DNA of 64,000 bases from Mayamaea pseudoterrestris (lineage: Eukaryota): contig BROI01000006.1 of the NCBI GenBank assembly GCA_027923505.1, positions 372,001 to 436,000 on the forward strand, written 5' to 3'. The position numbers and the translations under genes were made by a program. Of this stretch, positions 4,301 to 56,243 are shown in pieces. Below the pieces are notes generated by a model. The model had not been told where the DNA came from. It saw only the letters and a list, made by a program, of their open reading frames with translations, and searched no databases. Positions within the stretch are counted from its first letter, which is position 1. Each line of letters begins with the position of its first letter.

Positions 4301-7300
4301 TGCTCGCTGCCCTCTGACAAATCCAATTTCCAACGGTTAACATTCTCAACCTCCAAACTGACATTTAAATGACTCACTGGCTTCCCGTTTCTCGCCTTCA
4401 AGGAAGCCAACCAAGCACTAGAACTCATTGCCGCCGTCTTGTTTTGTGGCCCACCTTCCCAAATGGATCCGGAACCCTTTAGTTGGCGAAGAAGAGTTTT
4501 CCACTTCGTTGCGCCGTAAGCCAGATCGTCAAAGCCTTGCCTCTTCCACCTGGCATGACTGTCTGTTGTCCGCTCAGCAGATCGACGAGCCAGCTCGCCC
4601 CGTTCAATTCCTCCAAGTATCGAATTGTCAGAAGTATGTGTGGTGAGCTTTAAGAGCATAAGCTTTTGTTTGTTTTCGATCGCTTCGTCATGAGGGGTGG
4701 CTATTTTCGAGAACTCGGGAAACATTCGAGCGACTCTTTCGTCGACGGCCTTAAACACAAGATCAACCTGAGACTGGTTGCGTTCAAACCACTCAAAAAA
4801 CGATGAGTACTTTTTCTTAACTGACGACGCAGTAGCGCCGGATTTATTTGAGACGGAAGCTGCTTCGTGCGCTGTAAGCAATGCTCGAAAACCTCCTCTG
4901 TTTACCACATCAATTGTTTCAACTTGGTTCCCAGTTTTGATCTCTGCGACGAGAAGCTCCGACATCACGGACAATCGATGTTGCAAAAGAGCGACAAGAA
5001 TTGAGACGGCTGGTCCCCTTATGTCCTCTCGAGCATTATTTAAAGATCGTTGCAAGACAATAATGAGCGGCGCAACAAAAACAACTTGCGAGTTGGTGTT
5101 GTCACTGATGTCCGGATAAGAAGCGCTTTGATCCAGCGTACATCGTACAAAGCTGGCAGACAACCAAGTCGGAAAAAGGCGAGATTGATGTGGTGGTCTT
5201 GCAACAGTGCTGGTGGATGGGACACGCCTTCTAGCCTTCCGCTCTCGAGGTTGGACAAGTAGCAAAGCATCAATGTTCGCTTCGATAAGAGCAAGTACAA
5301 CAGCTTGAAAGTCTTCATCGCCCGGATCATGATAGCTCATTGGCAGGGTCATCTTTAGGGCCGCAACACACATTAGTCCGGCTATATGCGCAGCATCAGT
5401 AGTGAGAAGCGTGTGCTCAGCGTTATCCAGCGAGGCACTAGCCTGGACCCCAGAATCTATTAATGTCTCAAGAATCGACAAAGCAATTTTCACTGATTCC
5501 AGAGAAGCTTCCGCTGTAAAGTAAGCATTCGTTTGCTGGTTAAGTAAAACTGAACACAGACCCACGCAGTTCCCCATGAAGACAGCGTCGCCGTACTCCA
5601 ACACTTCTTGGATAACAGATTGACACTGCTCAATGAGTATCAAATGCAATGCTTCAACCTGCTGAGCAGATGCATGTATCGGAAAAGATTGAAACATGGT
5701 ATGTAATACAAGCGCTGCTGATGGTGCTGAAACCATAGCATCTAGAATAACCATGCGAAGTAGTCGCACCATGCCAAGGCTACCATCGTCGACCTCATTG
5801 GCGGTTCCCACAAATCTTTCTGTTGGGGGTATGTCCTTGGGAGTCGCGGAAAGCATAACGCGCCGTCGAGGTCGAGTCGACATCCGCTCGTTGTATATCA
5901 AGCATAAAGCTTGCGACAAAGGTTCCAAAAAATTGCGAGTGGTGCAAAATTGCTGGAAGGCCGGGGAGACTTCGTGTCTGTGTGCAATTAAATAGATGAC
6001 GGCAGCGTTCGTTTCTCGAGCAGTTGCACAGGCTACAGCATTATTGGACATGTATTTTATGTTTCTTCCAATGCATTCCGCTAAAAGACCAAAAATCTCA
6101 CTAGACGGATCATCCGACACTTGCTCCGTTCTGTATTCACTCGATTCACTGTCGAAAACTTCGCAAAGCTGCTCAGGATCAAGACGAGCAAAGAATGGAA
6201 GGTGAAGGATGGGGACATTTAGAAGCTCGCTCAGTAACGTCAGCGTGATGCCAGGGCAAGTGGCGAACTTTGGGACACTTAGAACAAATGGTGAAAACCC
6301 ACCAGCAGTCCAGAAGATCGATTCAAAAGCTGAGGAACCTTGTAACATTAATATCATCAACCGCAGTGTCGCTGATGCCGTAGCTTCTTCATGGCAACCT
6401 TCAAGCACTGTTGCGAACCAGACTGGCGTAAGAAAGCCCGAAAATGCGGAGAGGAAAGCTTGAGCTTGCTGGTGCTTAGGGTGTGTTTGATTTGTCGCTG
6501 ACTTGCCGCGCGTTATAAGTGTTGACAAGTAAGGTTGGTTCGGACTCGCTACACCACCAGAGTGGTATCGCACAGGGTTCTGAGGAACGCTCTTCTCGCC
6601 GGAATGCTTCGGTTGCGGCGCTGGCGGCGCGTTAGCAACAATTTCGTTAACTCCATCAACTATGAGCTCTTCCAGCAATCGCACTAAATATAAACGTGCC
6701 GTGGGACCAGGACGCATCCGTTCTTCCGCTGTTATTGATCCGCTTATATCTACGACACCCTGTTTAAGGGCAATATCATGCACTTTCGTCGATGAGCCAG
6801 AGATTGCCAGCGTAAAAATAATGCCATCTGCTACCGCTTCGAGATCACCGGGCGTCAACATGAATGTAAGAACTCTCCGTAACAATTTCTTGCAATCAAG
6901 TAGAAAACTGTTTCCAGGGTCACCGCCCACAGTAACGTCCGAAACTAGCGGTGATTCTGAGTACCACCCTTGCTTCACTTGTTTTATCCCCTCAATATCA
7001 CCAGCGCTCGCGCACCGTTGGAGTGCAACTTCAGAAGCGCTGTACAGCTCTGCGCCTTCGATCATGAGATGCAGTGCCCAACGTATGATCCCGACTAAGT
7101 GTAGCCGGCGAGCATTGAAAGATTTGTGCAAGGCTTTCTGACTAACAAGAACATTTAATGCAGATAGTAGTCGGAGCGGTATGCTAGGACCGCATCTTTG
7201 AAGGTCCCAAACCTGATGGTTTAGCAAAAGGTGCTTCATCGCATCGACATCTGACAGCACCCATGACGTCTCAGCGTCATCGTCAAACTGCACATCCACC

Positions 7301-10300
7301 GACAAGGGAGCGACCGTGTCAAAATCGAGCGAGGGCGCGAATCCTGTAACGGCAAAAGCAAGACATTCGTCAAGACAACTTATGTCCGCAAGGCCTCTTT
7401 CTTTTATTAGTACAGCCAGGATACGGTAGCCACCCCCAATTTGCATTGACTCCAGGTTGGGCGGATGCCTGTTTGTGCCTTGTCGGATTAATCGCAATGC
7501 ATACGCGAGGGACCGAGGCGATGATGCAGCATCCACCAAAGGAGTAAGCAAGTCCGGGCCACCAGCTTGGAAGAGGCAGTCTGAAAACCCAACGCTTGTC
7601 ACTAAACTATCCTTGCCGTATACAATCGCATCGGTCGCAACATTGTCATTGGAGAAATTCAGACGAGCCAAATTCACAAGCCTTTCGAAATGCAGAGTTC
7701 TTTTGCTTGGAAGAACATCATTACGCAACCTGCTGTTGGCCGCAAGCGCTTGATAGGCGAATACAACGCAGTCTGGAGGGATTACGCAAAGCAAACCCAC
7801 TGCTGATAAATCATCTCTATCCGACTCTTGCGGCCCAGTCGTGCTCAACCCTGCGCCCTCAAGTTTTTGGATGTTGCGTCGTTTAAGCGCACTGGCTATA
7901 CTCCCTGGTTCGCCGGTCTCAGCGAGCAGGGAAAACGTTAAAGTGCCGGTGGCAGCCAATGACATTCTTTGCGGTCGATCCCCCCATAAAATACTGGGAA
8001 AGTTAGGACCGCACGCATGTACTGCCGCTGCATCGAGATCGAGCAAGACCATCGATAAAAGTATACATGGTCCAAGCTCCCATGGCGAAATTCGTCCACG
8101 AACTATTCCAGAGGCAGCTAAAGTAGGATTAGGTGCACCGATGATGACAGAAGCATTGAGTGGCAAGGTTACAGAATCAATCCGCACTTCTGCTTCCAAC
8201 GCTCGTCCGTTAATGAATAAAGAGAAGCTGGATTTTCGCGACATCATTGTCCGCTTTGACGGCAAATAAGTAAGGAGCACATGGTGCCAAACGTCTGTCG
8301 TCAGTGGAGACACAGGAAAACAGGTAGGTTCGCCCCTGTATGATGCCGATGACACCACGGTGAATCGTTTATTTGACAAATCATACCAGACGGATAAATA
8401 AGACCGTTCTTGGTTAGCAGATAAGGGGTTCGTGGGTGCACAAACGTCAAAAATGTAGAGATTGCCTGTGCCATCAAACTCGTCGGATGAGCGCAGTCGA
8501 AGCCATGTGGAAAACGAAAACCCAGATCCGAGGAGCGGGGCCCACACCTTGTCAGTAGTGTCCTCAGTAGGCGATGCTGATTGCTGCAGTGCCTTAGCGT
8601 CTAGAGATGTGATTTCAACAAAAGCCAGTCGAGACTCCTGTGCAACACGACGTAGCCTGTCGTCTACATCGACATCATGCAAGAGGACACCGATGCTGTT
8701 AATCGAATCGCCTCCCACCCGAACAAGCGGAAACGCATTCGAAAATTCAGCAATTTCAGAAGCAAAACGCAATCTCTCGCAAAAAGCGTCATCTTGAAGA
8801 CGATCGATTGTCGGTAGAGGAGATGACGCTATCCCATTCGTACACATACTTTTTCCCACCGAGGAGCTTATTACGGGCAGTATAATGCGGTCTTCAGACT
8901 GTTGATTCATCAAAAGAGGCCCAAGCACGGAACGAAGAAGACCAACAAAGTCTCTGTATGACATATTGAAGGAGGCGAGTCGACGTAGAAAAGATAGCAG
9001 GAGCGGCTGGAGTGATTGGCCAGTAAACAACAGAGGAGCAAACTCATCCGGACTGGTCAAACTACATGCGAGCCCGCATGTTGCCAACGAGCGCAAATTC
9101 GAGCTAGTGGCTTCATCGCCACATGCGCGTAGTATCGGTTCCAGTGTTTGAAGCGCCTCTGCACTTTTATTATCAGCTTCCGACAAAAAGAGAGTCATAC
9201 GAAGGAGCAAGCGAATAGCGTCTGGGTTTCTGATCGATGCTGGCTCATCGACAGCGTCAACTTTCAGCTCAGCATCAATATGTCGCAAGCAAAGATCCAT
9301 GACTTTTGAGGACGATTCTGTTTCCATAACAGCAGTTCCAAAAATTGCGGCAGCTAGGTCCGAATAAAAGCTGCATTGTCGTACAAAGCTTCGATTTAGT
9401 GCCCCAGGTGACGCGAAGGAAGACTGTGACGAAACTGGATCCACAAATATATTGCAAGGCAGAATCACAGGACATGCATCAATCGATGATGCACCATCTT
9501 TATTCTTCATCCCAAATGCTGCATCCAGTGTACCGAAGACAGCTTTTAAACACTTCAGAACTTCTTTTTGGTGATAATCAGATTGCATCGCCATACCCTC
9601 CATACATAATACGACCGACAAAATTGTTTCAAAGCCCTCACACGTACGGAACGCCTCTCGAGCCGACTGTGTCGACTCTAAACTTGAACGCACAATCAAA
9701 AGAACCACAGTTAGTCGCTCCAAAGCAATGTTTTGGCCATCCGTGTCAAATTTTGAGGATGCCAGCGGCTCTCCAAGTTCACGTAGAAGAGTAAACACAA
9801 ACCGAAGTTCACGCTCATGCATGTCAAGAGATACAGAGGAGGACATAAAAACTTCGTAAGCACTCGCAATGGAGCCCACCGCGTCGTTACCTAGTTCATT
9901 TATTGCATACCGCAGCAGCCTGTGTATTGTCAACGCGCCCAATTCCCTTGCGGCGACAGCTTGCTGCGACACCAAAAGTCTTACAAGGTTGCTTACAATA
10001 CTGAACATAGAGTCAAATTCGGTTTTAGAAAGAGGCATTCCATTGCTGCCATGCGTTAAAGTATGCGCTTCCAGCAGTTCAACAAATTTAGGCAAGTTGA
10101 TGACGAGAAAGCTTTCAGTCATGAGCGGCGCAACGCGCTGATCGAATTGCAAAAGCTTTTCCAAAGTATTGCCCATCAGAGTCAAATCTTGCAGTAACAT
10201 GACCTCATTAGTAGAGTTAATTGTCGTCGACAACGATTTCTTGCTCAAAAGAGCCTGACACAGAGCGAAAAACACTTCAACGTACGCAGTCAGTGGTGTC

Positions 10301-50828: not shown

Positions 50829-51037
50829 GTGCCATATGTGCAGTTCGCCGCAGGTAGCTATGATATGGCGTTGGAGCACCTTTTTGTACCGGTACGACAT
50901 TTATTGCGATGAAACGATGTGCGAATGAAAATTCTTTGGAAATATTATGGGGTCGTGCGTTCCCCAAATTTCCAGATTGACTTGTTATCATACCACGACG
51001 CTCATTCACTGTCAACTTTAAAGCGAATACGAAAACT

Positions 51038-53491
51038 ATGACTACCAGCAATAATTCAATAAAAAAGCGGCACAAAAGGCATGATATTGCAAAGTTTCTA
51101 ATCATGTTGACTGCAGTTGCAACAGCGGCAATGCTAAATTCGACTTATATTTCAACGGAACACACAATTGAACGTTTAAAAGGTGATGCACAAGTCGACT
51201 TGTCTAGCATGACCTATACGTTCGGAGACGTGAGTAATAAGGTCTCATTCATTCCTGACAATGATGATGGCAAAAATAGTATCATGCGCAATGTCAGCGA
51301 ACATATGGAACAACTCGCGAGCTCTCTTACCGACACGACGATAGACATAGAACCCTCGAAAGCCGATGCACAAATTAGCAAGTCTAGCATGAACTCCACG
51401 TTCGAAGGCATCGAAAAGAATATCTCGCGAAGTGTCTTTTACAATATATTCATTCCTGACACTGATGATGGCAAGAATAATACCCTACGCATCGTCAGGG
51501 AGCAGATAGAACAAGTCGCCAGCTCGTTTGCCACCGCAACAATGGAGCAGCCCATGCCTATCATAATTTATACAATGGGAGCTGCAGATGTTATAACATC
51601 CGAAAGTTTGGCATCGATTTGCCCCGCGCGTCTGAAGTGCCATCACATGCAGCACTACCAGCAAGGAAACGAGGCCATTACCCTTAACGCACTCCGACAA
51701 TATTGCATTGAACGACCTACGGCAACTGTAACCTATCTTCATAGCAAAGGGTCCTTCCACCCCCGACCCGAGAATGAGGTATGGCGACGCATTTTGACCG
51801 ATGCCGCTTTGAGCGAACGCTGTTATTCTAACATAGGAGAAAAGGGTTGCAACCTTTGCGGCGACAAATTTTTAACGCTTCCGACCTACTTTATTCCAGG
51901 TAACATTTTTACAGTCAGCTGTGACTATGCATCGCAGCTGACATCCTTGGACACTTATGATTCAGCAATCATGCAAGTGGTCAAACGATTTTTCATTTTG
52001 CGGCTTCGCAAACAAATGTCGGTAAATTTGTATAGTCCGGATGCTGGCCGGCACTCGTTCGAGGCTGTGTTCGGATTGGGAAGATATGGAGCGGAAAATT
52101 GGATAGGCTCGCATCCAGACATACGTCCATGTGATTGCGTTAACACACGGTCGCCCTTGGCAATCACGAAAGGTCAGGTAAAGATGGGCGACTTGGAGCT
52201 GGTCAAGGGACGCCGAAGGCGACATTACGCAAAGATCATGAGAGTTCCCGCTGCCCGCATTCGAGACTTTCATGTGTTTGGTGGCATGCTCATGAAGTGG
52301 TACGCCCTTTATGGACGCGCGCCAGGACCATCATCATGGGTATGGTTGCATCATCCAGATGGGCCTTTTTGGCTCGACAAAGTGACAGACTTAGGCGAGA
52401 ATGCAATTGACAACGCTACGAGCCCGTTATTGCCGTTGGAGACACGTTTTCCGTCCAGTGGCGAATCATTAGCTTCAAGGAAGCTGTACGAGAACCACGG
52501 TAAAAGTCCTGAGGCATCTTTCATTTTCATGGATGCATATATATCCCCCAGTGTCGACAGTGTGGGAGTTCAACAAGAGATAGAATCTCTGAAGCAACAA
52601 ATTGCAATCGTAGAAAGCTCGGCGCAGTCTTCGGGGCGGAACGCTACCATCTTTTACAATACAATGGGAAACATGATATTGAAGGAATTTTCCTTGTGTG
52701 GCGCTTATAGCGGTCACCAGTGTATTCCACTCGCGCACTATGATACGCGCTACGAGGGAGAGACAATGCGCCAATTATTCAACTTCTGTCAAGTAAATCC
52801 TAACAAAAGCGTCTCTTACATACATAACCGAGTCCCAGAAGGTCAACACGGATTGAGTTTGGACATACAACGCCGCACGATGCGCCACTTAACTTTGGGT
52901 GTGACTTCAACATATTTTCTTTCCAATTCACTTTCAGCCCAAGACTGCGACGTTTACGGTCTTAAATTTAATTACATGCCTCATTACGCACTTTATGGGG
53001 ACATGTTTTTCGCCAAATGCGGATACATCAATCAACTACTCCCGCCCGAGAATTTTACCGTGCGCATGGAGTCATTTGCTGCCGAAGTGCTGATGCAAAT
53101 TGTAGAGAAGAAGTTGAACGTCGGAGTCCTGGAAGCCTCGGCCCAGAATCTAAGTGTAGGAAGACATGTCATGGCCCGCTGGGTCGTCAGTCACCCCTCC
53201 TGCGTCCCATGCGACCTAACCAACCAGACAAGTCACTTTTGGGAGTCAGAGGACCGCTCAAGGAATGATTTTTCCGTGCAAGTGCCCGGCCCGCACGATC
53301 GTGGATCTTCTTGGGACTATAACATATCGACAGAGGCATTACTAATGGAGAATCCTCAACTTCGATTACGCGAAGTACTTTTCCATCCGGTCCATATTTC
53401 GCACTGGCAAACAATTTATAATGCAACACCAGGCAATTCATCAGCTTTCCAAACCTGGTTTCCCGATGCCGAAAGTGGTTCAGTTGTATAG
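51038..53491 (+). CDS. Type II membrane protein with two tandem copies of an uncharacterised domain (YLHSKG / GN.F..C.Y / GR..E.W.GSHP), possibly glycan-modifying
   Basis: N-terminal TM; domain 1 HYQQGNE..TL...YC...YLHSKG...PGNIF..SCDY...GRYGAENWIGSHP.CD; domain 2 HYDTRYE..TM...FC...YIHNR...YGDMF..KCGY...GRHVMARWVVSHP.CD. Confidence 0.7.
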   Translation: MTTSNNSIKKRHKRHDIAKFLIMLTAVATAAMLNSTYISTEHTIERLKGDAQVDLSSMTYTFGDVSNKVSFIPDNDDGKNSIMRNVSEHMEQLASSLTDTTIDIEPSKADAQISKSSMNSTFEGIEKNISRSVFYNIFIPDTDDGKNNTLRIVREQIEQVASSFATATMEQPMPIIIYTMGAADVITSESLASICPARLKCHHMQHYQQGNEAITLNALRQYCIERPTATVTYLHSKGSFHPRPENEVWRRILTDAALSERCYSNIGEKGCNLCGDKFLTLPTYFIPGNIFTVSCDYASQLTSLDTYDSAIMQVVKRFFILRLRKQMSVNLYSPDAGRHSFEAVFGLGRYGAENWIGSHPDIRPCDCVNTRSPLAITKGQVKMGDLELVKGRRRRHYAKIMRVPAARIRDFHVFGGMLMKWYALYGRAPGPSSWVWLHHPDGPFWLDKVTDLGENAIDNATSPLLPLETRFPSSGESLASRKLYENHGKSPEASFIFMDAYISPSVDSVGVQQEIESLKQQIAIVESSAQSSGRNATIFYNTMGNMILKEFSLCGAYSGHQCIPLAHYDTRYEGETMRQLFNFCQVNPNKSVSYIHNRVPEGQHGLSLDIQRRTMRHLTLGVTSTYFLSNSLSAQDCDVYGLKFNYMPHYALYGDMFFAKCGYINQLLPPENFTVRMESFAAEVLMQIVEKKLNVGVLEASAQNLSVGRHVMARWVVSHPSCVPCDLTNQTSHFWESEDRSRNDFSVQVPGPHDRGSSWDYNISTEALLMENPQLRLREVLFHPVHISHWQTIYNATPGNSSAFQTWFPDAESGSVV

Positions 53492-53734: not shown

Positions 53735-55088
53735 TTACAACTCTAATCCATGAGCCAAAAGGGGCAGCAATATCGTCAAAATTTCGTGCGCCGCCTTGGG
53801 GTTACCCGGCAAATTGGCAACAAAGGTGGTGCCCCGAAGGCCAGCCGTCCCACGCGATAGGCTGGCTAGCGGCTGCTGGCGACTACATTCCATCGACACA
53901 AAACCCATCAGACCGGATGCTTCTTGGTAAAGTATTTTGCGTGTTGCTTCGGGCGTGACATCGCGCGCGCTCAAGCCTGTACCACCCGTTGTCAATATCA
54001 AATGTGGCGTCGCCGAAGCGTCCTCGCCGTCGCACCAATCCATGAGCCGTGACTGAATTGCTTCCATGTCATCAGGCACAATGGCTTTTCGTGTTGATAC
54101 ACGAGCATTGCCTAACAGCTCCTTGACGCTTTCTTCCACTGCCGGCCCAGAAAGATCACCATTTTCGTACTCGTTATGAAAGGCGCGATCGCTAACGGTG
54201 AGAATGCTGACGCGAATCTGTGCATGCTTCCATTTGTAACAATCAGCAGATATGGACGGTGGCGCATACGGCGGAATTGATCGATTGATACTTCTTGCGT
54301 TGTCATCATGGCTGACGGAAATGCGATGGCCCTGCGACGGAGTCGGGAACGTTTCGCAACAAACATTTGAGGAAAGCGCTATATTCTTCTCGCTGCTGCC
54401 ATGTCCCTCATTAGAAACTGCACTTGATTCAGCTGCAGCCTCAGCTTGAGCGGACGTAGGAGCTTCTGCATTTACGCGCGTCGGCAACAATTCTTCATTG
54501 TGTTTCGCCCAGAGCGAACGACTAGATTGATATCGCTCCAACTGCTCGTCGGTTGCCTTTTGCTGATGCTGCTTCTTCCAATCTCCATACTGCATACCAT
54601 AGACAATTTGAGCCGCTTGGTCGTATCCAAACTGATTCAACTGATCGGCGTAAGGATGTTTGGCGTGAATGGAATCGTCGCTAACGAGCGATGCTTCCGA
54701 CGCTGCGTCGTCAACCAGTTTTCTCGCTTCCAAAACCATCCACTAAGAGAATAATGAGAAGAATTAGTTGAACGAATAACGCAAAGAGTTGTATATCAAT
54801 TCCCAATGATTCGCAGCACTGCGATCTGTGAACCGTCGACAATCGTCACCAAGCGCGCGACTTCAGCATCTCGAGACTCGCTCTCAGTCGACAAACAGAG
54901 CCAGACACCTAGCGTACCTTGGCGAGGCAATTTCGACAAAAGCCCGAAAGCGTCATGAGGTCCATGTTGGAAACCTGATCACTCCGCTCCTGCAAGTGTT
55001 GGCAGAGAGACTCAAAAGCTCCGGCTTGTAGCTGCCGAACAAGAGATGCGGGGAGACCGATTCCATTTTCATTTTTATAGGAGTCCAT
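53735..55088 (-). CDS. DUF1244-like domain fused to molybdopterin adenylyltransferase (MogA/Cnx1G/gephyrin G domain). Exons 55088-54918 and 54742-53735
   Basis: Exon 1 QAGAFESLCQHLQERSDQVSNMDLMTLSGFCRNCLAK|W spliced at AAG|GTACG...TTAG|TGG, then IVYGMQYGDWKKQHQQKATDEQL. C-terminal ILTVSDR, DLSGP, IVPDD, LILTTGGTG..RDVTPEAT, LSRG.AG, NLPGNPKA. Confidence 0.88.
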
Positions 55089-55341
55089 TGTAGCTGATGA
55101 TGTTCTATAGAGTTGATGGGTGTTTGTAGGTGGTAACAGCAATACAGTAACAAACGAACGCGAGTCGAGCGAACTGTGCGCCTCGGCGGATGCAAGATCT
55201 CAGCCAGTACCGGTGCGAGATTTCGAGATACCGGTACGACCTACGACATTTTCGAAATGAAAGTTCCTCCACGACGAGAACCACAAGATGGCACATATCC
55301 ACGGCAGCGCTGTCAATTGCAAAGTTCATCCAACCAAAACA

Positions 55342-56243
55342 ATGAGCGACTCAATCGATCCCCAAGAATGGAAGGAGTAAGTTAGTAAGGAATGCATGCC
55401 CTTTGATGGTTCATTGCAACTCGTCCTCTCAAATCACTTTTTTCGCATTCTTCCAGACTCGGTAACAAGGCATTTGCCGCCAAGCAGTACAACGATGCCA
55501 TCCAGCACTACACCAAGGCTATCTTGTACGACAAGTCCAATCACGTATATTACTCCAATCGTAGTGCTTGTCACGCTGGACTCAAGCAGTGGGCGGAAGC
55601 CGCGCGAGATGCCAAGGAATGCATTCGCCTTGATCCATCCTTTGTCAAGGGATACTATCGGCTTGCGCTGGCACTCAAGGAGCTTGCGGATTATGAAACG
55701 GCAACTCATGCGCTGCGACAAGGATTGGCGGCAGCAAAAAATGACGCCAGCAGCATGGAACCGTTGCAGAAGCTGTTGAGGCAAGTGGAGCAGCTGCAGC
55801 GATCGTTGAATGCTGAGAAAGAGGAGAACGATACTGCAACCTTGCCGCAGCGTCACAGCGCTGGCAGTTCGACGTTATCCGCAGCGGCAGCCAAGCTTGA
55901 CGAAGCCTCGTCGCGCGAGCTCTACGATTTGGAGGTGCAAGCGACGCAATCAAGCCGCGACTTGTCAGTCGTCGAAAACCAACTGCTTCGTCTGGAGCGT
56001 GACAAGCGACTCGCCCAAGTCACAAAGGAGGAAATTAGTCAATTACCAGCTGAAACAGCCTGCTTTCGAAGTGTGGGTAAGATCTTTTTGAAGTCGTCGC
56101 AGGACCGAGTGACGGAATACTTGGATGAAAAGGTTTCAACGACTACCAAGCAGCAGCATGATTTGACGCAAAAGAAGGACTACTTGGAACGACGATTAAA
56201 GTCGCAGCAGCAGAACATGAAGGACATCTTGTCGCCGGCGTAG
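55342..56243 (+). CDS. TPR (STI1/HOP-like clamp) domain fused to prefoldin subunit 1-like domain. Exons 55342-55376 and 55457-56243
   Basis: WKE|LGNKAF...YTKAI, YSNRSAC, KGYYR form three TPRs. C-terminal coil-hairpin-coil with FRSVGKIF and QKKDYLERRLKSQQQNMKDIL resembles PFDN1. Confidence 0.85.

Follow-up and report, generated by a model that had tools for sequence, protein, structure and literature searches.

What does a small bacterial protein domain of unknown function do on an enzyme of molybdenum cofactor (Moco) synthesis? This question is raised by a gene on the minus strand, at positions 53735–55088, of a 64,000-nucleotide stretch of the genome of the raphid pennate diatom Mayamaea pseudoterrestris (contig BROI01000006.1, positions 372,001–436,000), which we refer to as the window and from whose first letter all coordinates are counted. 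The 392-residue product consists of a DUF1244 domain (PF06844), a disordered linker with the motif S-N-V-C-C and a domain of the Cnx1G/gephyrin-G type, in this order. Judged by its sequence, it is the G-domain half of a molybdenum insertase, that is, a putative molybdopterin adenylyltransferase, which would convert molybdopterin (MPT) and Mg-ATP to MPT-AMP.

An earlier note, made from the letters of the window alone, had read this fusion as a possible Rosetta-stone link between DUF1244 and Moco synthesis. Our analysis supports this reading, because the fusion recurs in many protists, because bacterial DUF1244 is nested within genomes that carry MoeA, and because DUF1244 occasionally stands in one gene string with moeA or moeB. 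We consider it very likely that DUF1244 works in the Moco pathway. As a third component of Mo-insertases it is widespread in protists, and in Pseudomonadota it is a free Moco accessory of about 100 residues; since many Moco-competent organisms lack it, it is an optional helper rather than a core enzyme. The explanation as a whole, i.e. a real, spliced G-domain gene whose DUF1244 part helps the insertase of the Moco pathway by way of thiols, is the best one that we can offer and probably correct.

Moco biosynthesis is regarded as a closed, well-understood subject. Its steps were established in E. coli, plants, fungi and humans, none of which has DUF1244; in most other eukaryote lineages, a third conserved domain is built into the Mo-insertase or attached to it.

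Gene model and domains of the diatom protein

The earlier note had joined two separately listed open reading frames (ORFs) by a phase-0 intron at 54917–54743. The resulting gene reads as follows:

55088–55086, minus strand: ATG start codon
54918–55088, minus strand: exon 1, 57 residues, comprising 13 N-terminal residues and the first half of DUF1244 up to ...GFCRNCLAK; corresponds to residues 1–57 of the protein P0003
54743–54917, minus strand: intron of 175 nt, phase 0, GT..AG, with a pyrimidine tract ahead of the AG
53738–54742, minus strand: exon 2, 335 residues from WMVLEARK... onwards, comprising the second half of DUF1244, the linker and the G domain
53735–53737, minus strand: TAA stop codon

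The intron begins with GTACGC and ends with TCTCTTAG; its length is not divisible by three, and an in-frame stop lies two codons into it. This two-exon, spliced gene model is confirmed. The product spliced by these coordinates is letter-identical to P0003, which is the NCBI entry ‘hypothetical protein MPSEU_000395800 [Mayamaea pseudoterrestris]’, and a contig of 946 nt from run X3 (~97% identical) covers 53939–54742 and resumes at 54918–55059. It omits exactly 175 nt, with ends that read CT..AC on the plus strand and hence GT..AG on the gene strand, so that the spliced form expected across 54918/54742 is present in one contig. Among 22 aligned diatom homologues, 19 run without a gap through ...GFCRNCL[AS]K and on into W[LM]V..., the rest being P0108, in which the intron is kept, and sequences with mis-modelled N-termini. 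The intron position is old and common to other diatoms, since two public gene models, P0108 and P0143, contain an unspliced insert precisely at the junction.

The fusion could also be an artefact of gene modelling, made of two adjacent genes or of a retained bacterial contaminant. Exon 1 on its own is short, and two points count against the spliced model: the splice is known from the single X3 contig, which is ~97% identical and comes from a library whose kind is not on record, and this contig could in principle stem from an intron-less allele. We nevertheless hold an artefact to be extremely improbable. The DUF1244 profile is split by the intron (positions 1–19 and 30–66), and neither half is a gene alone; the intron has canonical ends and an internal stop; the exact junction is present in a contig; and the same contiguous protein is encoded by dozens of independent diatom genomes and transcriptomes.

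Contigs from runs X1 and X2 span the intron as well as intergenic DNA. Over much of the gene (53800–55140), they come in two variants of unequal depth that differ by 1–4%, one of them with a differing intron sequence (joint 54754/54866); the pattern suggests the presence of two alleles in a diploid diatom, or else of two strains.

For the domain analysis, invariant columns were taken from an alignment of 32 bacterial DUF1244 sequences (A1) and compared with the window protein and the 22 diatom sequences. The latter also served as input for an AlphaFold2 model, in which the helical N-terminal domain reaches a predicted local distance difference test score (pLDDT) of 65–89, residues 148–211 stay below 50 and the G domain reaches 85–96. 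The parts of the product are:

54927–54938, minus strand: CxxC motif, C51-R-N-C54, in the first turn of a long helix (residues 50–74) in the AlphaFold2 model; invariant in A1
54512–54742, minus strand: second half of DUF1244, residues 58–134, with a diatom-specific insertion of ~20–25 residues between CLAKW and YGM
54224–54511, minus strand: linker, residues 135–230, of low complexity and of varying length among diatoms; predicted disorder (pLDDT <50 for 148–211)
54356–54370, minus strand: S182-N-V-C185-C186, a short invariant motif within the disordered linker; the two cysteines lie at 54361–54356
53738–54223, minus strand: G domain, residues 231–392, of the MoCF_biosynth/Cnx1G/gephyrin-G type, with VPDD, TTGGTG and RDVTPEAT

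The N-terminal pattern, which the earlier note had assigned to DUF1244 by eye, is recognized by the 67-position Pfam profile in both exons above the cut-off of 27 bits: residues 39–57 of exon 1 match positions 1–19 (E 6e-8, 33.1 bits) and residues 36–72 of exon 2 match positions 30–66 (E 9e-11, 42.1 bits). Since consecutive parts of the profile match separate exons, the intron cuts through the domain. Residues 14–134 furthermore match the DUF1244 chains of PDB entries 2O35 and 3FYB (E 5e-14 each). The residues that are invariant in the family are present, namely H31, N41, D43-L-M, F50-C-R-N-C-L55, W58, Y105-G-M, W112 and Q117/Q118; the Q of the Q-N pair is Q in most diatoms and S40 in M. pseudoterrestris. 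The tail of the diatom domain, ...SSRSLWAKH, is similar to the bacterial tail TKPLHAKISGH.

In the linker, the cysteine pair pointed out before is found as C185 and C186. Across the 22 diatom sequences, the motif takes the form S-N-V-C-C[EQ][DT], with V and both cysteines invariant and S and N nearly so, and a proline-rich P-P-x-x-P-P stands directly ahead of the G domain.

The G domain is complete, as proposed: PF00994 (MoCF_biosynth) covers residues 180–331 of exon 2 with positions 2–144 of its 144 (E 1e-20, 74 bits, cut-off 26.6), so that Pfam returns the expected pair of DUF1244 and MoCF_biosynth, and PDD, GGTG and RDVT are all in place. TIGR00177 scores 88.2 bits, just over its cut-off of 85.35. 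The NCBIfam equivalog NF006932 (‘molybdopterin adenylyltransferase’) reaches 108.2 bits, under its cut-off of 158, as is expected because this model is tuned to bacterial MogA and the domain in the window is of the eukaryote type. The two Pfam families of the E domain, MoeA_N and MoeA_C, have no match in either exon. A complex prediction for the DUF1244 part (residues 1–147) with the G domain (225–392) scored 0.01 (mark 0.34), with the alignment unused and controls not run, and thus speaks neither for nor against a contact. Apart from a label ‘putative alkaline phosphatase’, which we disregarded, an atlas search yielded DUF1244 clusters only, at scores of 0.82–0.83, under its reliability mark.

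Recurrence of DUF1244 with Moco genes in eukaryotes and bacteria

A fusion found in one organism might be a one-off; a survey across algae shows this one to be widespread and conserved. When exon 2 was used as the query, all of the best 120 matches listed carry PF00994 and PF06844, and all the named ones are diatoms (Cyclotella, Thalassiosira, Skeletonema, Cylindrotheca, Nitzschia, Amphora, Pseudo-nitzschia and Synedra). The distant fusion protein P0293 as the query likewise gave both domains in each of the best 120 matches listed, which include Diplonema papillatum, Eutreptiella gymnastica, Tisochrysis lutea, Chrysotila carterae, Pyrodinium bahamense, Alexandrium catenella, Pelagophyceae sp. 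and Prasinoderma coloniale. An exhaustive HMMER search of 1.84 billion cluster representatives returned 113 clusters at E<=1e-30, mostly fusions, whose names place the combination of DUF1244 (D) and G domain (G) in Parmales, Lotharella globosa and Prasinoderma coloniale. In all, the fusion is held by diatoms, Parmales, pelagophytes, haptophytes, dinoflagellates, chlorarachniophytes, euglenozoans, Picozoa and Prasinoderma, and the named organisms cover at least five major eukaryote groups.

The order of the domains varies. DUF1244 was detected in 21 of 26 scanned proteins, seven of which also have MoeA domains, i.e. the E domain (E). The architectures with an E domain are:

D-E-G: Picozoa sp. 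SAG31 (P0304) and P0324
E-D-G: P0295 and P0310
E-D-D-G: P0272 and Oxyrrhis marina (P0446/P0321)
D-G-D-E: P0261 of the diplonemid Artemidia motanka, a Trinity transcript with two letter-identical DUF1244 copies

The last of these is not counted as a firm architecture, the identical copies being what a chimera of D-G and D-E transcripts would give; it could be such an assembly chimera, or a single 5' exon could be spliced alternatively to G and to E. Four more proteins of ~688 residues have DUF1244 directly upstream of the G domain according to a local hidden Markov model (HMM), and the N-terminal half of P0348 and P0351, as read from the sequence, appears MoeA-like. In several lineages, DUF1244 occurs in tandem (two copies in Thalassiosirales; also Oxyrrhis, P0267 and P0272), which fits the obligate interlocked oligomer that a review describes for this SCOP family (PMC2954204). 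The short, eukaryote-looking lone DUF1244 proteins P0123–P0128 stop either at the ...EEQL/M exon boundary or where the contig ends and were set aside as truncated models of fusions.

Two cysteine motifs accompany the module. Of the DUF1244 rows, 30 of 31 from eukaryotes and 153 of 154 from bacteria retain CRNC. Within 150 residues after the end of DUF1244, 250 of the 270 fusion proteins have a CC pair, which nearly always reads S-[ND]-V-C-C. The pair tracks DUF1244 and not the G domain: P0324 has it between DUF1244 and the E domain. In a weakly resolved maximum-likelihood tree of DUF1244 (97 columns), 29 of 29 eukaryote rows stand opposite 83 bacterial rows, with a Shimodaira–Hasegawa-like approximate likelihood ratio (SH-aLRT) support of 86, not starred; two bad rows had been taken out, and with both kept, 25 of 30 eukaryote rows group. 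The tree is compatible with a single origin of the eukaryote module, without proving it.

In bacteria, free DUF1244 proteins of 97–110 residues are found in Pseudomonadota and a few Myxococcota. The 32 aligned sequences share one invariant His (in HLQ), Q-N-x-D-L-M, F-C-R-N-C-L, W, G-M, W and Q, and the diatom domain scores best against the subgroup with the tail TKPLHA.ISGH (Rhodospirillales and some Gammaproteobacteria). In an alpha- and gammaproteobacterial set of genomes (G087, G159, G069, G049, G196, G413, G228, G452, G423, G358, G242, G429, G433, G409 and G214), the match stops early, at about profile position 55–61, at a stop codon, which suggests a naturally shorter subfamily that would lack the last helix.

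The strongest bacterial evidence for a link to Moco is the nesting of DUF1244 in genomes with MoeA. In 201 sampled alphaproteobacterial genomes, DUF1244 and MoeA_N are both present in 114, DUF1244 alone in none, MoeA alone in 24 and neither in 63; the corresponding numbers for 250 Gammaproteobacteria are 67, 0, 100 and 83. Thus, 181 of 181 DUF1244 carriers have MoeA (two of the 67 gammaproteobacterial carriers are genomes flagged as unpublished; 65 of 65 without these), and none of the 146 genomes that lack MoeA has DUF1244. As a control for genome reduction and lifestyle, we used the FGase family, the commonest neighbour of DUF1244 and of similar prevalence. It persists in 35 of the 146 MoeA-lacking genomes (19/63 alpha, 16/83 gamma), as opposed to none for DUF1244 in either class (Fisher p 8e-7 and 1e-5, respectively), in statistics that ignore phylogeny and with genome completeness not reported. 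Furthermore, genomes of 1.1–1.4 Mb that retain MoeA retain DUF1244 as well (G107, G390, G028 and G049).

The bacterial gene neighbourhoods, which the earlier note had proposed to consult, gave a divided answer: most loci are of a different kind, as described below, and in five lineages DUF1244 has Moco-type neighbours, namely moeA, mobAB-moeA, moeB-like and msrPQ-like genes, or a Mo-hydroxylase with xdhC. In three of these, moeA itself adjoins DUF1244: the order is mobA-mobB-moeA-DUF1244 in G376 (locus L159; 23 nt between the last two), moeA abuts a following DUF1244 in G040 (L160), and in three Azospirillum loci, a gene encoding DUF2478, DUF4213 and DUF364 (‘putative heavy-metal chelation’) precedes DUF1244, with a convergent moeA directly behind. 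In G255 (L161), DUF1244 is followed by a ThiF-family (MoeB-like), an Oxidored_molyb (MsrP/YedY-like) and a Ferric_reduct (MsrQ-like) gene, and in L093 by MoCoBD (Mo-hydroxylase) ORFs and XdhC. The three-domain Azospirillum protein (L081, L083 and L084, at ~4700–5980 of the plus strand, upstream of DUF1244 and opposite moeA) may be a second uncharacterized gene related to Moco or to metals.

The neighbours in L161 and L093, molybdoenzymes or their maturation factors, would also suit a DUF1244 that acts as a carrier or acceptor of MPT-AMP or finished Moco, perhaps ligating Mo through cysteine and passing the product to apo-enzymes. Enzymes of the sulfite-oxidase type ligate Mo through Cys, and genes of this family are mildly enriched in genomes with DUF1244 (57/67 versus 69/100, p 0.03); a carrier would also fit the oxygenic or aerobic lifestyles of the holders, in which free Moco would be labile. 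This enrichment is too mild for us to maintain that DUF1244 tracks sulfite-oxidase-family enzymes, and DUF1244 is tied most closely to the insertase: in the eukaryote fusions examined, its partner is G or E and G and never a molybdoenzyme, and moeA is the neighbour in three bacterial lineages. As a pterin-binding fold is not evident either, we think a carrier rather unlikely, though the least so of the alternatives, and favour a helper of the insertase.

To the neglect of phylogeny in the co-occurrence statistics, a number of further observations have to be added that weigh against a thiol-based role in the Moco pathway. Most bacterial DUF1244 genes adjoin genes without relation to Moco. We surveyed 158 loci in two batches (80 first, 78 next), taking upstream genes from longest-ORF calls, a procedure that picked antisense ORFs in high-GC loci and missed the Azospirillum moeA. 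On this count, an FGase-family amidohydrolase directly precedes DUF1244 on its strand in 41/80 and 10/78 loci and a GCS2 ligase in 11/80 and 8/78; within the first batch, pyruvate kinase is divergent in 42/80 and GapR lies downstream in 11/80, with lower counts in the second. Likewise, purD recurs, the order purD-DUF1244-DUF6352 being typical of Rhodospirillales. No more than 4 of the 158 loci have a MoeA-like ORF within 6 kb, as counted from six-frame ORFs with a MoeA HMM; wider Pfam scans completed the survey of neighbours. A tblastn search with the diatom G domain as the query brought up no MogA-like ORF in the 158 loci. Many genomes manage without the domain: 24 of the 138 alphaproteobacterial and 100 of the 167 gammaproteobacterial MoeA carriers lack it, as do 10 of 11 MoeA-bearing control genomes, E. 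coli included, with Caulobacter as the only holder; DUF1244 is therefore dispensable for Moco synthesis as such. On the level of single residues, the CC motif is missing from 20 of the 270 fusions and from all bacterial forms (0 of 158 DUF1244 ORFs), and the His that is invariant in the 32 bacterial sequences is Trp in three E-D-G proteins, so that a Cys2His site is not universal.

Two details of these loci may be recorded here. In the Rhodospirillales loci L086, L087, L092 and L096, DUF6352 (PF19879, ~349 residues) follows DUF1244 on the same strand at ~6325–7480 of the plus strand. In G219, a 1032-residue open frame that encloses DUF1244 runs antisense to folD and is therefore spurious.

The neighbourhoods invite the alternative that DUF1244 belongs to small-thiol or gamma-glutamyl metabolism, together with FGase and GCS2, that its tie to Moco is indirect, through lifestyle or co-regulation, and that the fusions are accidents that were kept. 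One of the two families is directly upstream on the same strand in 52/80 and 18/78 loci, and L100 and L103 have glyoxalase II and oxoprolinase on the downstream side. FGase, however, is not nested in MoeA genomes as DUF1244 is (35 versus 0 of 146 genomes without MoeA), nine alphaproteobacterial genomes have DUF1244 without FGase, and chance explains poorly why Mo-insertase fusions arose repeatedly and in different orders across eukaryote supergroups. We therefore see little probability in this alternative and keep to a function in the Moco pathway itself.

A possible thiol mechanism and its alternatives

How might a DUF1244 helper act? We propose that it would assist the insertase step through thiols, with the CxxC at the N-terminus of a helix and the tethered CC pair forming a thiolate hand-off site. 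Such a site could receive or hand over a thiophilic metal at the MPT dithiolene, be it copper or Mo itself, or it could maintain the oxygen-sensitive dithiolene in its reduced state during the transfer of MPT-AMP from G to E. Four features favour thiol chemistry over a tether or scaffold. The CxxC is the one feature conserved from bacteria to diatoms, and it sits at a helix N-terminus; eukaryotes add a vicinal cysteine pair on a flexible arm; the recurring tandem copies would make an intramolecular version of the interlocked dimer; and bacterial neighbours often have a thiol or gamma-glutamyl theme (the GCS2 glutamate-cysteine-ligase family, glyoxalase II and oxoprolinase). We put the specific thiol or metal mechanism forward tentatively, as one that may well turn out otherwise.

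An even bolder version starts from the copper that is reportedly bound to the MPT dithiolene in the crystal structure of Cnx1G. DUF1244 might be the missing thiolate partner of the insertase, which would load or strip this copper or escort Mo and thereby shield an oxygen-labile intermediate. This is a speculative idea that we rate below the general mechanism. If true, it would mean that the intermediate is protected in aerobic Pseudomonadota and most protist lineages, and the loss of the partner in plants, animals and fungi would explain its absence from the Moco biochemistry of model organisms.

The tandem copies and the long linker also bear on a purely structural role. The G domain is trimeric and the E domain dimeric. 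A dimeric DUF1244 without chemistry of its own could cross-link trimeric G domains into a lattice, much like gephyrin, or hold G near a separate E. For such an oligomerization module speak the length and predicted disorder of the linker, the inclusion of the family among interlocked obligate oligomers in the SCOP review (PMC2954204), and the importance of the linkage between G and E in the insertase of Neurospora crassa (PMC11489736). Tandem copies, in contrast, would satisfy the dimer within one chain and abolish cross-linking; architectures that already have a dimeric E domain still keep DUF1244; free bacterial DUF1244 is tethered to nothing; and a pure scaffold leaves the near-absolute conservation of CxxC in bacteria and eukaryotes, as well as the CC arm, unexplained. 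Pure oligomerization is thus improbable in our estimate, slightly more so than a carrier and less so than an indirect tie through gamma-glutamyl metabolism, and the thiol-based helper of the insertase is the reading we continue with.

The assignment gives a pathway to a domain of unknown function with two orphan crystal structures. Free DUF1244 is present in about half of the sampled Alphaproteobacteria (114/201) and a quarter of the Gammaproteobacteria (67/250), only alongside MoeA. It is a testable candidate in two matters, the source and fate of the metal on the MPT dithiolene and the protection of a labile intermediate in air. Moco feeds nitrate reductase in diatoms. Placed upstream of this enzyme, the DUF1244-G protein would bear on nitrate assimilation by phytoplankton under Mo, Cu or redox stress.

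In the window, the gene is flanked by two open frames on the plus strand. The divergent one (55407–56243, ~320 bp upstream of the ATG) combines tetratricopeptide (TPR) repeats with a following Prefoldin_2 domain (E 6e-15), an unusual pairing; the limits given for it run from stop to stop. The convergent one (50981–53491, 817–836 residues) appears by eye to consist of two similar halves of ~330 residues, i.e. an internal duplication, and has no Pfam family at E<=0.001.

Comparison with known systems

Public databases already show the automatic pair of PF00994 and PF06844 on the fusion proteins. A full-text search by family name for literature naming ‘DUF1244’ or ‘SMc04008’ yielded no link to Moco; a Marinobacter DUF1244 protein is mentioned in a preprint on frameshifting. 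As the databases carry the Pfam pair and the texts draw no link to Moco, the architecture has been visible and, in the literature under the family's name, uninterpreted. A recent treatment classifies eukaryote insertases as E-G, G-E or separate, and the legend of its S1 Table notes an unnamed N-terminal extension of ~150 residues on the G domain of Micromonas commoda, Diacronema lutheri and Chrysochromulina tobinii (PMC13262936, 2026). Going by this legend, the extension is probably the DUF1244 module, which would be a candidate identity for it.

The closest relatives of the enzymatic half are Cnx1G of Arabidopsis, gephyrin G and E. coli MogA. Over their whole length, residues 231–392 can be aligned with gephyrin G and Cnx1G (E 1e-31), and in the alignment with gephyrin G (1ihc, 1jlj), the blocks VPDE/D, LILTTGGTG, RDVTPEAT and NLPG are all identical or conservatively replaced. 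The Asp of VPD-D/E, TTGGTG, RDVTPEAT and NLPG are presumably the active-site motifs of the G domain. Unlike these proteins, the window protein has ~230 extra residues, DUF1244 and the linker, ahead of the domain, and its ORF contains no E domain.

With the two-domain insertases Cnx1 (E-G), gephyrin and NIT-9 (both G-E), it shares the pathway step, and its relatives in Picozoa, Oxyrrhis and other marine eukaryotes are themselves fusions of E and G. The textbook forms consist of two catalytic domains and a lineage-specific linker, as described in the literature (PMC11489736, PMC13262936), whereas the protist forms have a third conserved, folded domain, either N-terminal or between E and G, and the diatom form consists of DUF1244 and G only. 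In encoding G apart from E, the gene in the window resembles those of the green algae (Chlamydomonas, Mamiellales), for which a separate CNX1G is described (PMC2944026, PMC13262936).

The N-terminal half belongs to the DUF1244/SMc04008-like family (PF06844; PDB 2O35 and 3FYB; function unknown), which residues 14–134 match with the invariant residues kept. The diatom domain differs from its bacterial counterparts in being split by an intron, in the ~20–25-residue insertion after CLAKW, in the S-N-V-C-C linker that follows it and in being joined to an enzyme.

Lastly, the arrangement recalls mercuric reductase. MerA carries an N-terminal CxxC domain on a linker and a C-terminal vicinal cysteine pair, between which metal is handed off. 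In both cases, an enzyme that acts on a thiophilic centre has a small CxxC domain attached to it, together with a vicinal CC pair on a flexible stretch. We claim no relation in sequence or fold; the analogy serves as a model of how the thiols of DUF1244 and its linker could be arranged around the enzyme.

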